From NCBI RefSeq assembly GCF_003334305.1, contig NZ_QOWS01000016.1: DNA of 64,000 nucleotides; one strand, given 5' to 3'. Source of the stretch: Escherichia coli (GTDB lineage Bacteria; Pseudomonadota; Gammaproteobacteria; Enterobacterales; Enterobacteriaceae). The notes below the pieces were generated by a model, which did not search any database, had not been told where the DNA came from, and saw nothing but the letters and a program-made list of their open reading frames with translations. The position numbers were made by a program, and so were the translations under genes. This document shows, one piece after another, positions 8,951-46,600 of this stretch (positions are counted from its first letter, which is position 1; each line of letters begins with the position of its first letter).

Positions 8951-10078
8951 ATGCAGTGCGCACTTTACGACGCGGGTCGCTGTCGTTCCTGTCAGTGGAT
9001 AACGCAGCCGATTCCAGAGCAACTCTCCGCTAAAACCGCCGATCTTAAAAATCTGCTCGCCGATTTTCCGGTTGAGGAATGGTGCGCGCCGGTGTCAGGC
9101 CCGGAACAAGGGTTTCGTAATAAAGCCAAAATGGTGGTGAGTGGTAGCGTTGAAAAACCACTGCTCGGTATGCTGCATCGCGACGGCACACCAGAAGACC
9201 TTTGTGACTGCCCGCTTTATCCTGCCTCATTTGCGCCCGTTTTTGCGGCGCTAAAACCGTTTATCGCCCGTGCGGGGCTGACACCCTACAACGTGGCGCG
9301 TAAGCGTGGCGAACTGAAATACATTCTGCTGACTGAAAGCCAGAGCGATGGCGGCATGATGCTGCGCTTTGTACTGCGTTCTGAAACCAAACTGGCACAA
9401 CTGCGTAAGGCGCTGCCGTGGTTACAGGAACAACTACCGCAACTGAAAGTTATTACCGTCAATATTCAGCCGGTACATATGGCGATTATGGAAGGGGAGA
9501 CGGAGATCTACCTTACTGAACAACAGGCGCTGGCAGAGCGTTTTAATGACGTACCGCTGTGGATCCGTCCGCAAAGTTTCTTCCAGACTAATCCGGCGGT
9601 CGCCAGCCAGCTGTACGCTACCGCGCGCGACTGGGTACGGCAGCTGCCAGTTAAACATATGTGGGATCTGTTCTGCGGTGTGGGTGGCTTTGGTTTACAC
9701 TGCGCGACGCCTGACATGCAGTTAACCGGGATCGAAATTGCATCAGAGGCCATTGCCTGTGCAAAGCAGTCAGCCGCTGAACTGGGCTTAACGCGTTTGC
9801 AATTTCAGGCGCTGGACTCCACTCAGTTTGCCACCGCTCAGGGGGAGGTGCCGGAGCTGGTGCTGGTTAATCCGCCGCGCCGCGGCATTGGTAAACCGCT
9901 ATGTGATTATCTCTCAACAATGGCACCGCGTTTTATTATCTACTCCAGCTGTAACGCCCAAACCATGGCGAAAGATATCCGCGAACTGCCAGGTTACCGC
10001 ATCGAACGGGTACAGCTTTTTGATATGTTCCCGCACACCGCGCACTATGAAGTGCTGACGCTGCTGGTGAAGCAATAA
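8951..10078 (+). CDS. rlmC: 23S rRNA (uracil747-C5)-methyltransferase RlmC (RumB)
   Basis: 375-aa ORF; N-terminal Cys cluster ([14 protein letters not shown]) and SAM-methyltransferase core typical of RumA/RumB family. Confidence 0.9.
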
Positions 10079-10984: not shown

Positions 10985-11098
10985 GATGGAACTCCCGTCT
11001 GTCAATCTTATGATTTTTGGCCGTGTCTGCGGCATGGGATAACAATGCCATCAAGTGAATTTATATGCAATAAATATGATTAAATAATTTAAATGAAA

Positions 11099-11135
11099 TA
11101 AAAAAAGACGGATACCTTAGTGAGTTGTCCGTCTT
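11099..11135 (-). terminator. Rho-independent terminator after artPIQM
   Basis: AAGACGGA...TCCGTCTT stem; on the minus strand followed by a 6-7 nt T-run. Confidence 0.6.
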
Positions 11136-11157
11136 CATTATAAGAATTTATGCACTA

Positions 11158-11247
11158 TGTAGGCCGGATAAGGCGTCCACGCCGCATCCGGCACAGGCAC
11201 CGTGCTGATGTCTGATGCGACGCTGGCGCGTCTTATCAGACCTACAA
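11158..11247. repeat. REP-type extragenic palindromes between artJ and artM
   Basis: TGTAGGCCGGATAAGGCGTCCACGCCGCATCCGGCAC and GCGACGCTGGCGCGTCTTATCAGACCTACA. Confidence 0.7.
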
Positions 11248-11275
11248 ACCCCCCCGGCGAATGTACGCAGCTACA

Positions 11276-18702: not shown

Positions 18703-19704
18703 TTAACGCGCCAGGAATGCGCGCCAGTGGGCGGCGACTTCCGCCAGTTGTTCGCGCGAGACGTCAAGATGCGTCACCAGGCGGACAATCGGCGAGGCGT
18801 TAATCAGCACGTTTCTCGCTTTCATGTATTCGCCTAACGCGGCAGCATTTTCTTCCCCGACGCGAACAAACAGCATATTAGTGTCCTGACGCATCACATC
18901 CGCGCCTGCTTCACGCAGTTGCTCCGCCATCCAGGCGGCGTTGTCGTGATCTTCCTGCAACCGTGCGACGTTATTTTTCAGGGCATACATCCCGGCGGCA
19001 GCCAGAATCCCGGACTGACGCATCCCGCCACCGGCCATTTTCCGCCAGCGGATGGCACGTTTAATGTAATCACGATTACCGACGAGTAATGAACCGACTG
19101 GCGTCCCAAGACCTTTCGACAGGCAAATGGTGAACGAATCACAATATTGCGTGATCTCTTTCAGTTCGCAGCCGTAAGCCACCACGGCATTAAAGATGCG
19201 CGCACCGTCAACATGCAGCGCCAGATTGCGCTCGCGGGTAAATTCCCATGCTTCTTTCAGGTATTCACGCGGCAGCACTTTGCCGTTGTGGGTGTTTTCC
19301 AGACTGAGTAATTTGGTGCGGGCGAAATGGATATCGTCGGGTTTGATTTTCATCGCCACTTTATCCAGCGGTAGCGTGCCGTCGGCAGCCGCGTCGATGG
19401 GTTGCGGCTGAATACTGCCCAGCACCGCTGCGCCACCGGCTTCAAACAGATAGTTATGCGCGGCCTGACCGACAATATACTCTTCGCCACGTTCGCAGTG
19501 ACTGAGCAGAGCGACCAGGTTGGCCTGAGTGCCGGTAGGCAGAAAAATGGCGGCTTCTTTACCGGAAAGCTCTGCTGCATAGTCCTGCAGAGCATGAACG
19601 GTAGGGTCGTCTCCGTAAACGTCGTCCCCAACCGGGGCGGCCATCATCGCTTCGAGCATGGCGCGGCTCGGTCGGGTAACGGTATCACTGCGTAAATCAA
19701 TCAT
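18703..19704 (-). CDS. ltaE: Low-specificity L-threonine aldolase LtaE
   Basis: 333-aa ORF recognised as LtaE ([31 protein letters not shown]...). Confidence 0.9.
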
Positions 19705-33673: not shown

Positions 33674-35950
33674 ATGCTCAATCAAGAACTGGAACTCAGT
33701 TTAAATATGGCTTTCGCCAGAGCGCGCGAGCACCGTCATGAGTTTATGACCGTCGAGCACTTGTTACTGGCGCTGCTCAGTAACCCATCTGCCCGGGAGG
33801 CGCTGGAAGCGTGTTCTGTGGATTTGGTTGCGCTCCGTCAGGAACTGGAAGCCTTTATTGAACAAACCACACCCGTTCTGCCTGCCAGTGAAGAGGAGCG
33901 CGACACACAGCCGACGCTGAGTTTTCAGCGTGTACTGCAACGTGCGGTCTTCCATGTCCAATCCTCCGGTCGCAATGAGGTAACCGGTGCAAACGTTCTG
34001 GTCGCTATCTTTAGCGAACAGGAGTCGCAGGCGGCATATCTGTTGCGTAAACATGAAGTCAGCCGTCTCGATGTGGTGAACTTTATCTCTCATGGCACGC
34101 GTAAAGACGAGCCGACACAGTCTTCTGATCCTGGCAGCCAGCCAAACAGCGAAGAACTAGCTGGTGGGGAGGAACGTATGGAGAATTTCACGACGAACCT
34201 GAATCAGCTTGCGCGCGTGGGCGGAATCGACCCACTGATTGGTCGTGAGAAGGAGCTGGAGCGTGCTATTCAGGTTCTCTGCCGTCGCCGTAAAAACAAC
34301 CCGCTGCTGGTGGGGGAATCTGGTGTCGGTAAAACCGCGATTGCGGAAGGTCTTGCCTGGCGAATTGTTCAGGGCGATGTGCCGGAAGTGATGGCTGACT
34401 GTACGATTTACTCTCTCGATATCGGTTCTCTGTTAGCGGGCACTAAATATCGCGGCGACTTTGAAAAACGTTTTAAAGCGTTGCTCAAGCAACTGGAGCA
34501 GGACACTAACAGCATCCTGTTTATTGATGAGATCCACACCATTATCGGTGCGGGGGCAGCGTCTGGTGGCCAGGTCGATGCGGCTAACCTGATCAAACCG
34601 TTGCTCTCCAGCGGTAAAATTCGCGTAATTGGTTCGACAACCTATCAGGAGTTCAGCAACATTTTCGAGAAAGACCGTGCTCTGGCGCGTCGCTTCCAGA
34701 AAATTGATATTACTGAACCGTCGATCGAAGAAACTGTTCAAATCATCAATGGCCTGAAACCGAAGTATGAAGCGCACCACGACGTGCGTTATACCGCAAA
34801 AGCGGTGCGTGCAGCGGTAGAGCTGGCGGTGAAATACATTAACGATCGTCATCTGCCGGATAAAGCCATTGACGTTATCGACGAAGCGGGCGCTCGCGCA
34901 CGCCTGATGCCGGTAAGCAAACGCAAGAAAACCGTTAATGTGGCGGATATTGAGTCCGTGGTGGCCCGTATTGCGCGCATTCCAGAGAAGAGTGTTTCTC
35001 AGAGTGACCGCGATACCCTGAAAAACCTCGGCGATCGCCTGAAAATGCTGGTCTTCGGTCAGGATAAAGCCATTGAGGCGCTGACTGAAGCCATTAAGAT
35101 GGCGCGTGCAGGTTTAGGTCACGAACATAAACCGGTTGGTTCGTTCCTGTTTGCCGGCCCTACCGGGGTCGGGAAAACAGAGGTGACGGTACAGCTTTCG
35201 AAAGCGTTGGGCATTGAGCTGCTGCGCTTTGATATGTCCGAGTATATGGAACGCCATACCGTCAGCCGTCTGATTGGTGCGCCTCCGGGATACGTTGGTT
35301 TTGATCAGGGAGGTTTGCTGACTGATGCGGTCATCAAGCATCCACATGCGGTGCTGTTGCTGGACGAAATCGAGAAAGCGCATCCGGACGTGTTCAATAT
35401 TCTGTTGCAGGTGATGGACAACGGTACGCTGACCGATAACAACGGACGCAAAGCGGACTTCCGTAACGTGGTGCTGGTGATGACCACCAACGCCGGGGTA
35501 CGTGAAACTGAGCGTAAATCCATTGGTCTTATCCACCAGGATAACAGCACCGATGCGATGGAGGAGATCAAGAAGATCTTTACACCGGAATTCCGTAACC
35601 GTCTCGACAACATTATCTGGTTTGATCATCTGTCAACCGACGTGATCCATCAGGTGGTGGATAAATTCATCGTCGAGTTGCAGGTTCAGCTGGATCAGAA
35701 AGGTGTTTCTCTGGAAGTGAGCCAGGAAGCGCGTAACTGGCTGGCCGAGAAAGGTTACGACCGGGCAATGGGCGCACGTCCGATGGCGCGTGTCATCCAG
35801 GACAACCTGAAAAAACCGCTCGCCAACGAACTGCTGTTTGGTTCGCTGGTGGACGGCGGTCAGGTCACCGTCGCGCTGGATAAAGAGAAAAATGAGCTGA
35901 CTTACGGATTCCAGAGTGCACAAAAGCACAAGGCGGAAGCAGCGCATTAA
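33674..35950 (+). CDS. clpA: ATP-dependent Clp protease ATP-binding subunit ClpA
   Basis: ORF track 33659..35950 trimmed to ATG at 33674 ([19 protein letters not shown]...), 758 aa; two AAA+ modules (GESGVGKT and GPTGVGKT). Confidence 0.9.
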
Positions 35951-35975
35951 TCTGATTGTTAGGTAGGTTGGTCAA

Positions 35976-36012
35976 GTCCGTAATCTCGAAAGAGGTTACG
36001 GACTTTTTGTTT
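35976..36012 (+). terminator. Rho-independent terminator of clpSA
   Basis: 12-bp stem GTCCGTAATCTC / GAGGTTACGGAC with GAAA tetraloop, followed by TTTTTGTTT. Confidence 0.7.
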
Positions 36013-36162
36013 ATGGGGTGGAGGAGGTTCAGACCCTTTTTTTAATGATGATGGTAAGTTGTTGATAATTAGTGCTGCGGGAAGGTAAGGATAAAAAAGG
36101 GTGCTGCAGGAGAATGGGATGGTTTTGCTTTATTAACAACGGGCTAAACGTGTAGTATTTGA

Positions 36163-36250
36163 GTTCACTGCCGTACAGGCAGCTTAGAAATCGACGGGGT
36201 GCGGTAAAACCTTTGCGAACGCGTTCACTGCCGTACAGACAGATAAAATG
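36163..36250 (+). CRISPR. Orphan type I-F CRISPR mini-array: two 28-bp repeats flanking one 32-bp spacer; no adjacent cas genes
   Basis: Repeat 1 (36163-36190) GTTCACTGCCGTACAGGCAGCTTAGAAA matches the E. coli/Yersinia-type I-F repeat; spacer (36191-36222) TCGACGGGGTGCGGTAAAACCTTTGCGAACGC; repeat 2 (36223-36250) GTTCACTGCCGTACAGACAGATAAAATG is degenerate at its 3' end, as expected for a terminal repeat. Putative leader 36013-36162. Confidence 0.8.
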
Positions 36251-36251
36251 C

Positions 36252-36281
36252 GAAAAAAAAGCTCGCACTTTCGTACGAGCT
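36252..36281 (-). terminator. Rho-independent terminator of serW
   Basis: GCTCG...CGAGC stem; on the minus strand followed by an 8-nt T-run. Confidence 0.6.
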
Positions 36282-36293
36282 CTTCTTTAAATA

Positions 36294-36381
36294 TGGCGGT
36301 GAGGGGGGGATTCGAACCCCCGATACGTTGCCGTATACACACTTTCCAGGCGTGCTCCTTCAGCCACTCGGACACCTCACC
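36294..36381 (-). tRNA. serW: tRNA-Ser (anticodon GGA)
   Basis: Reverse complement gives GGTGAGGTGTCCGAGTGGCTGAAGGAGCACGCCTGGAAAGTGTG...GGTTCGAATCCCCCCCTCACCGCCA: 88 nt, long variable arm, CU-GGA-AA anticodon loop, encoded CCA end. Confidence 0.9.
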
Positions 36382-36565
36382 AAATTGTTTTGCTACCAAA
36401 CCTCATGGGTGGCAACGGGGCGCTACTATAGGGAGTTGGAGTAAAACGGTCAAGAAGAATTTTAATGATAATTATTGTTTGCTCATACTGTAAACAAGTT
36501 GTGCAGTATATCTACATCGAGACAAGTTACGGACTTATACTTCCAAAGTACTTCATACATATCAC

Positions 36566-36596
36566 AAAATAAAAAGGCCGGTTAAACCGACCTTTT
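36566..36596 (-). terminator. Terminator downstream of infA (possibly bidirectional)
   Basis: GGCCGGTT-a-AACCGACC stem flanked by A-run and T-run. Confidence 0.55.
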
Positions 36597-43633: not shown

Positions 43634-46600
43634 TTGAGCCAGGAATACACTGAAGACAAAGAAGTCACATTGACAAAGTTAAGTAGCGGCCGTCGCCTTC
43701 TGGAAGCGTTGCTGATCCTTATTGTCCTGTTTGCCGTCTGGTTGATGGCTGCCTTACTAAGCTTTAACCCTTCGGACCCCAGCTGGTCGCAAACGGCCTG
43801 GCATGAACCTATCCATAATTTAGGTGGGATGCCCGGTGCGTGGCTGGCAGATACGCTGTTCTTTATTTTTGGCGTGATGGCTTACACCATTCCCGTCATT
43901 ATTGTCGGCGGTTGTTGGTTTGCCTGGCGTCATCAGTCCAGTGACGAATACATTGATTATTTTGCCGTTTCGCTACGCATCATTGGCGTTTTGGCGCTCA
44001 TCCTTACCTCCTGTGGTCTGGCGGCAATCAACGCTGACGATATCTGGTATTTTGCCTCCGGTGGCGTCATTGGCAGCTTACTAAGCACTACGCTACAACC
44101 ACTGCTACACAGTAGCGGGGGAACTATTGCGCTGCTCTGCGTTTGGGCTGCGGGCCTGACGCTGTTCACCGGTTGGTCATGGGTGACCATTGCTGAAAAA
44201 CTCGGCGGCTGGATTTTAAACATTCTCACCTTCGCCAGTAATCGTACCCGTCGCGATGATACCTGGGTCGATGAAGATGAATATGAAGATGACGAAGAGT
44301 ATGAAGATGAAAACCACGGCAAACAGCATGAATCACGCCGTGCCCGTATTCTTCGCGGCGCGCTAGCGCGTCGTAAACGGTTGGCGGAAAAATTCATTAA
44401 TCCGATGGGGCGGCAAACAGACGCTGCGTTGTTCTCCGGTAAGCGGATGGATGATGACGAAGAGATTATCTACACTGCACGCGGTGTGGCTGCCGACCCG
44501 GACGACGTCCTATTTTCGGGCAATCGTGCAACGCAGCCAGAATATGACGAATACGATCCATTATTAAACGGTGCGCCAATTACCGAACCTGTCGCTGTAG
44601 CAGCTGCTGCTACCACGGCGACACAAAGCTGGGCTGCGCCGGTTGAACCTGTGACTCAGACGCCGCCTGTTGCCTCTGTTGATGTTCCACCTTCGCAACC
44701 TACAGTAGCCTGGCAGCCTGTACCGGGTCCACAAACGGGAGAGCCGGTTATTGCTCCTGCACCGGAAGGTTACCCACAGCAGTCACAATATGCGCAGCCT
44801 GCAGTGCAATATAATGAGCCGCTGCAACAACCAGTACAGCCGCAGCAGCCGTATTATGCACCTGCAGCTGAACAACCTGCGCAACAACCTTACTACGCTC
44901 CTGCGGCGGAACAACCTGTTCAGCAACCGTATTACGCCCCTGCGCCAGAACAACCGGTGGCAGGTAACGCCTGGCAAGCCGAAGAGCAGCAATCCACTTT
45001 TGCTCCACAGTCTACATACCAGACTGAGCAAACTTATCAGCAACCAGCCGCTCAGGAGCCGTTGTACCAACAGCCGCAATCCGTTGAACAGCAGCCTGTT
45101 GTGGAGCCTGAACCCGTTGTAGAAGAGACAAAACCCGCGCGTCCGCCGCTTTACTATTTTGAAGAAGTGGAAGAGAAGCGAGCCCGTGAACGTGAACAAC
45201 TTGCGGCCTGGTATCAACCGATTCCAGAACCGGTTAAAGAACCAGAACCGATCAAATCTTCGTTGAAAGCGCCTTCTGTTGCAGCAGTACCTCCAGTAGA
45301 AGCCGCTGCCGCTGTTTCTCCGCTGGCATCTGGCGTGAAAAAAGCGACACTGGCGACGGGGGCTGCCGCAACCGTTGCCGCGCCAGTCTTCAGTCTGGCA
45401 AATAGCGGTGGACCGCGTCCGCAAGTCAAAGAGGGGATTGGCCCGCAGTTGCCACGACCGAAACGTATCCGCGTGCCAACTCGTCGTGAACTGGCGTCTT
45501 ACGGTATTAAGCTGCCCTCACAGCGTGCGGCGGAAGAGAAAGCCCGTGAAGCCCAGCGCAATCAGTATGATTCTGGCGATCAGTATAACGATGATGAAAT
45601 CGATGCGATGCAGCAGGATGAACTGGCACGTCAGTTCGCCCAGACACAGCAGCAACGCTATGGCGAACAGTATCAACATGATGTGCCCGTAAACGCAGAA
45701 GATGCAGATGCTGCGGCAGAGGCTGAACTGGCTCGTCAGTTTGCGCAAACTCAACAACAACGTTATTCCGGCGAACAACCGGCTGGGGCGAATCCGTTCT
45801 CGCTGGATGATTTTGAATTTTCGCCAATGAAAGCGTTGCTGGATGATGGTCCACACGAACCGTTGTTTACGCCAATTGTTGAACCTGTACAGCAGCCGCA
45901 ACAACCGGTTGCACCGCAGCAGCAGTATCAGCAGCCGCAACAACCAGTTCCGCCACAGCAGCAATATCAGCAGCCGCAACAGCCGGTTGCGCCGCAGCCG
46001 CAGTATCAGCAGCCACAACAGCAGGTTGCGCCGCAGCCACAATATCAGCAGCCGCAACAACCGGTTGCGCCACAGCCGCAATATCAGCAGCCGCAACAAC
46101 CAGTTGCGCCGCAGCCGCAGTATCAACAGCCGCAACAACCGGTTGCACCGCAGCAGCAGGATACCCTGCTTCATCCGCTGTTGATGCGTAATGGCGACAG
46201 CCGTCCGTTGCATAAACCGACGACGCCGCTGCCTTCTCTGGATTTGCTGACACCGCCGCCGAGCGAAGTGGAGCCGGTAGATACCTTTGCGCTTGAACAA
46301 ATGGCTCGCCTGGTGGAAGCGCGTCTGGCTGATTTCCGTATTAAAGCCGATGTCGTCAATTACTCTCCGGGGCCGGTTATCACTCGCTTTGAACTTAACC
46401 TGGCTCCTGGCGTAAAAGCGGCGCGCATTTCTAACTTGTCACGGGACCTTGCCCGTTCACTTTCGACGGTGGCGGTGCGTGTCGTTGAAGTTATTCCTGG
46501 CAAACCCTATGTAGGTCTGGAGTTACCAAATAAAAAACGACAAACCGTTTATCTGCGCGAAGTTTTGGATAACGCCAAATTCCGCGATAATCCGTCGCCA

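Follow-up and report, generated by a model that had tools for sequence, protein, structure and literature searches.

The closest described relatives of the array reported here are the type I-F arrays that most E. coli strains keep between clpA and serW without any cas genes, which Mojica's group designates CRISPR4.1-2 of locus CRISPR-III and which correspond to CRISPR3, or 'anti-CRISPR', in the naming of Touchon and Rocha (for nomenclature and a description of the locus, see PMC3903273). Spacers matching cas1, cas3 or csy2 were found in all cas-less arrays of the clpA-serW locus, and an anti-CRISPR role was proposed for them (Touchon and Rocha, 2010; PMC2886076). According to the summary that the review PMC8616872 gives of the work of Almendros et al. 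(2016; Nat Microbiol 1:16081), which we cite through that review, expression of native orphan arrays is constitutive, and these arrays both act by interference on plasmids that bear I-F cas genes and prime the acquisition of further spacers. Two other kinds of minimal arrays are relevant for comparison, namely the CreR/CreA mini-arrays (bioRxiv 10.1101/2023.03.10.532045), which act as crRNA-like regulators on the promoters of cas or toxin genes, and the single-spacer mini-arrays carried by viruses and plasmids (PMC8616872).

The array described here was found in a window of 64 kb (the whole stretch of E. coli DNA that was analysed) and belongs squarely to the orphan anti-cas CRISPR4 arrays, with which it agrees in every respect that could be tested: position in the clpA-serW locus, repeat, leader, degenerate terminal repeat, lack of I-F cas genes, and a spacer matching an I-F cas gene (cas3) next to a CC PAM. 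Nothing essential separates it from them, only which spacer has been retained, since the window variant keeps an anti-cas3f spacer alone, K-12 MG1655 an anti-cas1f spacer alone, and other strains both or more. The feature is already known, its locus, spacer class and mechanism having been published between 2010 and 2016. What is added here is scale (5,426 complete genomes) together with detail on alleles, on plasmids and phages and on the terminal hairpin, with no new biology. It serves as a textbook example of how a CRISPR array can be turned on its own Cas machinery.

The locus is a genuine orphan type I-F array made of two repeats and one spacer, the smallest array possible. The features of the array and its flanks are the following:

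35948-35950: stop codon of clpA, from direct reading
35974-36005, + strand: intrinsic terminator hairpin of clpA, an inverted repeat of 14 stem pairs followed by a T-run
36013-36162, + strand: A+T-rich CRISPR leader, kept from the clpA-proximal I-F array (CRISPR4.1)
36163-36190, + strand: repeat 1, GTTCACTGCCGTACAGGCAGCTTAGAAA, a perfect type I-F repeat
36191-36222, + strand: the single spacer, 32 nt, TCGACGGGGTGCGGTAAAACCTTTGCGAACGC
36223-36250, + strand: repeat 2, terminal and degenerate, GTTCACTGCCGTACAGACAGATAAAATG
36253-36288, - strand: terminator hairpin of serW, 16 stem pairs and a T-run, directly after the array
36294-36381, - strand: serW, tRNA-Ser(GGA) (ARAGORN; Rfam tRNA, 53.8 bits)

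The type I-F repeats read on the + strand and lie exactly 60 nt apart from start to start, as given by a repeat finder. Across the 64-kb window, repeat 1 alone matches the I-F consensus when up to three mismatches are allowed, and it has none, while 100 shuffles yielded no match at all. It is the same, letter for letter, as all 14 full repeats in the two arrays of an I-F-positive strain, and it scores 50.1 bits on the + strand (E = 1e-10) against the Rfam family CRISPR-DR4 (RF01317), for which the gathering score is 35. It contains the Cas6f hairpin CUGCC-GUACA-GGCAG, with a 5-bp stem and a 5-nt loop (-8.6 kcal/mol), and it is also the source of the 8-nt 5' handle of the crRNA, CUUAGAAA. One could still argue that a pair of similar 20-28-mers has come together by chance, there being only two copies, of which the second stays under the Rfam threshold. 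This is a vanishingly improbable reading, refuted by the identity of repeat 1 with the repeats that genuine arrays carry at this locus, by the empty shuffles, by the identity of the leader and by the match of the spacer to cas3f (see below for both), and hard to reconcile with the exact 60-nt period.

On the upstream side, the T-run that follows the clpA terminator forms the edge of the leader. The 150 nt preceding repeat 1 are the same, without a single difference, as those of K-12 MG1655 and as the clpA-proximal leader of the I-F-positive strain CFSAN064035, and it is this identity with the leader of an active I-F array that makes 36013-36162 a retained leader. A promoter scan found no sigma-70 consensus promoter in this leader, the best candidates of a lenient scan matching at only 8 of 12 positions. 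On the downstream side serW is the conserved boundary of the array locus, and its terminator may well end the array transcript too. The array is thus tightly fitted between two terminators, and the locus has been conserved in essentially every E. coli, both of which could be taken to favour a role of the transcript that needs no Cas protein, for example by acting as a small RNA or by affecting clpA termination or serW expression in cis, the cas3f match then being historical. We consider such a role very improbable, given that no Rfam family other than CRISPR-DR4 and tRNA reached its gathering score, that the 98-nt array region folds no more stably than its shuffles (z = -0.71), and that spacer content varies among strains, K-12 having a different one, which makes it unfit for a sequence-specific small RNA.

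No cas gene accompanies the array in the window. Searches by tblastn with Cas1f, Cas3f, Csy1-3 and Cas6f returned from the window only the spacer (11 aa of Cas3f) and noise (E > 0.09), and blastn with the whole I-F operon returned only the spacer and the serW terminator, on which grounds cas remnants in the window were rejected. The window is collinear from ybjL to pflB with E. coli E2863, at ~99.4% identity, and the counterpart region of that strain is annotated with core genes only, none of them a cas gene. The second array that I-F-positive strains hold in the serW-infA interval is absent from the window as well. Lacking cognate cas genes, the array is classed as an orphan, which does not disqualify it as a CRISPR array. 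Beyond the window, the rest of the source genome is presumably free of cas genes too, since none of the 1,560 genomes that bear the spacer has cas3f (see below). An earlier note on this stretch, made from the sequence alone, had already recognised a type I-F repeat pair around a 32-nt spacer, with a second repeat degenerate at its 3' end, had taken 36013-36162 for the leader and had seen no cas gene in the window. All of this stands, on the zero mismatches and the 50.1-bit + strand CRISPR-DR4 score of repeat 1, on the agreement of repeat 2 at only three of its last eight positions, on the leader of CFSAN064035, and on the tblastn and blastn searches with the I-F operon and the collinearity with E2863, respectively.

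Between serW and infA, a segment of 108 nt (36463-36570) stands where I-F-positive strains hold ~1.5 kb of leader and second array. Within or next to it, two weak resemblances to the leader side were noted, that of 36460-36487 to 36040-36067 (71%) and that of 36517-36536 to the arm of the clpA terminator at 35986-36005 (85%); both may be due to chance. Much farther away, at 44841-44952 of the window and inside ftsK, the alignment with E2863 breaks into overlapping segments with a length difference of 39 nt, which suggests a difference in repeat copy number, perhaps in the linker region of FtsK.

The home locus of the complete system was examined in two I-F-positive references, APEC E12053 (L001) and CFSAN064035 (L006), which share the order clpA, array, cas1f, cas3f, csy1, csy2, csy3, cas6f, serW, array, infA. 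Their repeats are identical to repeat 1 of the window and have the same orientation. The active clpA-proximal array (CRISPR4.1) of both strains thus resembles the window array in repeat, orientation and position beside clpA, and the leaders are homologous or identical to that of the window. However, these active arrays hold 8-13 spacers, whereas the window array has one, and the hairpin of their terminal repeat (GTTCACTGCCGTACAGGCAGTATTCACA) is intact, whereas that of the window is mismatched. They are also followed by cas1f, cas3f, csy1-3, cas6f and a second array beyond serW, none of which is present in the window. A different arrangement was seen in the GTDB representative E. coli SCPM-O-B-8794 (L009, NZ_JAATUR010000002.1; positions 1480-1600), where an I-F array repeat breaks off at GTTCACTGCCGTAAAG and runs straight into the middle of cas3f, with the junction ~70 nt upstream of the protospacer, so that cas1f and the 5' part of cas3f have been deleted. 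This fusion may represent an intermediate in cas loss.

Both copies of cas3f contain the target of the spacer. The match is perfect in CFSAN064035 (32/32, positions 9101-9132) and extends over 31 of 32 positions in E12053 (17196-17227), in each case preceded by CC, and no chance match of this kind appeared in 100 shuffles. The spacer reproduces the non-target strand of cas3f, its match being on the coding strand, and in type I-F systems the PAM is 5'-CC on the protospacer strand when the spacer is read in crRNA orientation. The protospacer encodes residues 425-435 of Cas3f (STGCGKTFANA), which include the Walker-A or helicase motif I (STGCGKT). The sole mismatch in E12053 falls at spacer position 12 and is synonymous, a TGT/TGC difference at the wobble base of the Cys codon. 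In type I Cascade/Csy complexes every sixth position of the crRNA is left unpaired, and position 12 is one that we take to belong to this non-pairing series. Because the mismatch sits there, both allele families of cas3f should be recognised by the spacer. The pattern extends to three more spacers that other strains, K-12 among them, carry in orphan arrays: their targets lie in cas1f or cas3f, show 0-3 mismatches to the spacer and are likewise preceded by CC.

One might go further and see in the one-spacer variant a specially robust anti-cas device, in which a single guide covers every I-F system of E. coli, but we find this doubtful. It is just as questionable that the spacer owes such robustness to its start in codon register on motif I, which would place the non-pairing positions 6, 12, 18, 24 and 30 on wobble bases; the two cas3f families do differ at position 12, one of these would-be non-pairing positions. 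If this reading were true, cas3f would have few synonymous routes of escape, and the variant would work despite its mismatched terminal hairpin, which would imply relaxed requirements of Cas6f for the last repeat. The idea that the spacer was chosen for an unusually conserved target found no support. Its protospacer differs between the two cas3f alleles at one of 32 positions, and 55% of the candidate CC-flanked protospacers in cas1f and cas3f, compared over two alleles, do as well or better, differing at no more than one position. When one genome per species was searched leaving the five non-pairing positions free, only the E. coli representative matched, which offers no evidence of coverage of I-F systems in other species.

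The terminal repeat deserves attention in a one-spacer array, since the sole crRNA has to draw its 3' hairpin and handle from it. Repeat 2 agrees with repeat 1 at 22 of 28 positions overall, 19 of the first 20 and only 3 of the last 8, a 3' divergence of the kind that terminal repeats usually undergo. Against CRISPR-DR4 it reaches 20 bits, under the gathering score of 35. The change G17A introduces a C·A mismatch into the hairpin stem, and the predicted stability drops to -1.4 kcal/mol, no better than that of shuffles, compared with -8.6 kcal/mol in the canonical repeat. At the cleavage site, G20 and A19 are still present. The same terminal repeat, GTTCACTGCCGTACAGACAGATAAAATG, is common to K-12, D7 and JNEC-KY171, while CB7453 has another variant of a degenerate terminal repeat. 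Binding or cleavage by Cas6f may be impaired by the mismatched stem, and with the 3' hairpin coming from this repeat the processing of crRNA from the one-spacer variant is a presumed step. The mismatched hairpin under the sole crRNA of one-spacer variants is a concrete point that can be tested.

The distribution of spacer and target was studied in 5,426 complete E. coli genomes. The anti-cas3f spacer matched 1,801 of them, in array context in 1,560 and in cas3f only in 241. A separate search with 232 nt of cas3f gave 241 genomes, 201 with the allele type of E12053 and 40 with that of CFSAN064035, i.e., the spacer matches the minority family (40 genomes) perfectly and the majority one (201) with one mismatch. 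As 1,560 and 241 add up to 1,801, no genome holds both the spacer and cas3f. The anti-cas1f spacer of K-12 behaves in the same way, with 2,568 matched genomes that divide into 2,327 in array context and 241 in cas1f only, again with no co-occurrence. Genomes with multiple hits were considered as possible cases of spacer and target together, and were rejected because the spacer was duplicated within the array.

Sequence conservation of the array is also very high, ~1,548 of the 1,560 copies being 100% identical over the 52 nt tested, and the spacer has been retained where the leaders in front of it vary at several positions. In K-12 MG1655 (L008, 3750-3850) the two-repeat architecture is that of the window, with the anti-cas1f spacer TTCACAGGTAACATACTCCACCCGCCCACCAT in place of the anti-cas3f one. 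D7 (L005, 2980-3120) and an IMG/VR contig (L013, 3870-4000) have both, the anti-cas3f spacer first and the anti-cas1f spacer after it, from which we infer that the arrays of the window and of K-12 are alternative one-spacer derivatives of a longer array.

A search of phages with the spacer gave no match. Seven PLSDB and two IMG/VR matches were obtained, but a plasmid or viral origin of the spacer was rejected, all of them being chromosomal fragments with the clpA-serW region. The 73.7-kb 'plasmid' NZ_CP148399.1 (L007) and the IMG/VR entries L012 and L013 consist of chromosomal macB-clpA-infA-cydCD fragments, and their plasmid and virus labels are database mislabels; these are not mobile carriers of the array. 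The clpA-infA region had been named in the earlier note as the residence of E. coli I-F systems, with orphan arrays whose spacers match I-F cas genes. The gene order of the two I-F-positive strains and the match of the spacer to cas3f (31/32 and 32/32, with CC PAM) bear out both statements, which are also accurate with respect to PMC2886076, PMC3903273 and Almendros et al. (2016), the last as summarised in PMC8616872. The note had also proposed searching cas genes, phages and plasmids with the spacer, which led to cas3f and to no genuine phage or plasmid target, and comparing the clpA-serW interval across genomes, where the spacer in its array (1,560) and cas3f (241) proved mutually exclusive among the 5,426 complete genomes.

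We regard it as probable that this orphan array is a heritable block on the re-acquisition of a I-F system. The array would be transcribed from its leader, as published work indicates, and in the absence of Cas proteins the transcript would remain inert. Upon entry of a I-F cas operon into the cell, the incoming Cas6f would cut the array transcript, and the Csy complex would load the anti-cas3f crRNA and bind the incoming cas3f beside its CC PAM. Recruitment of Cas2/3 would then lead to the destruction of the cas-bearing DNA or, if it had been integrated, to cells that die or delete the cas DNA, and it is through this attack that the array would act as a heritable block against I-F. The anatomy of the array, its target, the PAM and the mutual exclusion were observed directly. 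For transcription, processing and interference we rely on the literature on native orphan arrays, to which the one-spacer variant would conform by analogy. None of the plasmid and phage collections searched contains a carrier of the target, so that the incoming vehicle assumed by the model is undocumented in them. The failure of the scans to find a consensus promoter in the leader and the weakened hairpin of the terminal repeat also count against the model. If it operates as proposed, the array helps to explain why most E. coli lack I-F systems and why orphan arrays persist.

The mutual exclusion is equally expected from a pure relic of autoimmunity, and both phylogeny and the sharing of one locus by the two states confound it. 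In such a scenario, which PMC2886076 ascribes to Diez-Villasenor et al. (2010), a I-F-positive ancestor took up spacers from its own cas genes, self-targeting selected for the deletion of cas, and the mini-array has persisted without function. The spacer is as self-acquisition would have left it, fully identical to a cas3f allele of the resident type and with the correct PAM at its target, and mutual exclusion would follow automatically. The damaged hairpin of the terminal repeat and the existence of decayed copies (in D7 a spacer shortened to 31 nt by a 1-nt deletion, in JNEC-KY171 a point variant) also fit an inert remnant, and the genome in which an array repeat is fused to a 5'-truncated cas3f shows that such deletions occur. 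Against this, ~1,548 of 1,560 copies do not differ over 52 nt and the spacer is retained even where the leaders differ; ordinary spacers are lost fast, whereas cas-matching ones are found in every cas-less array, as argued in PMC2886076; and orphan arrays are expressed and interfere with cas-carrying plasmids (Almendros et al., 2016, in the account of PMC8616872). An inert relic is therefore unlikely, disfavoured mainly by the published interference experiments and also by the near-invariance of the spacer. An autoimmune origin and a present protective function are compatible, and both may hold, the one for how the array arose and the other for what it does now.

Both I-F-positive strains contain in addition, between cas3f and csy1 and in reverse orientation, a degenerate two-repeat unit with a 25-nt pseudo-spacer (11074-11150 in CFSAN064035, about 19166-19243 in E12053). 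Positions 1-5 and 7-11 of the pseudo-spacer match a CC-flanked site ~100 nt away, upstream of csy1 (11232-11252 with the CC PAM at 11253-11254 in CFSAN064035, near 19344 in E12053), and position 5 co-varies in guide and target, being T/T in CFSAN064035 and G/G in E12053. To judge from the sequence, this unit has the anatomy of the CreR/CreA type, a class already described for I-F systems.

The window array shares with CreR/CreA mini-arrays the layout of two repeats and one spacer and a guide directed to the cognate cas locus. Those elements, however, are located inside the cas locus, with degenerate repeats and a short pseudo-spacer, and since they pair with a promoter over the PAM-proximal ~11 nt only, they repress without cleaving, whereas the window array has no cas genes in cis and its spacer pairs over 32 nt in a coding region. 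Because its guide matches at full length within a coding region and no cas genes lie in cis, it is not a regulator of the CreR/CreA type, and it appears to be built for interference, not for regulation. With the single-spacer mini-arrays of viruses and plasmids (PMC8616872) it has in common the minimal layout and an action in trans with Cas proteins encoded elsewhere. These, however, belong to mobile elements and are aimed at hosts or competitors, whereas the window array is chromosomal, vertically inherited and placed in the core genome, and its target is the Cas machinery itself.

A last observation concerns the downstream boundary of the locus in other strains. In L003 (3231-3460) and in D7 (L005, 3110-3240) the terminal repeat is followed by a partial second copy of the serW terminator and of the 3' end of serW, together with a short unique insert, all ahead of the real serW. 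This duplication resembles a scar left behind by an element formerly integrated at the tRNA gene.
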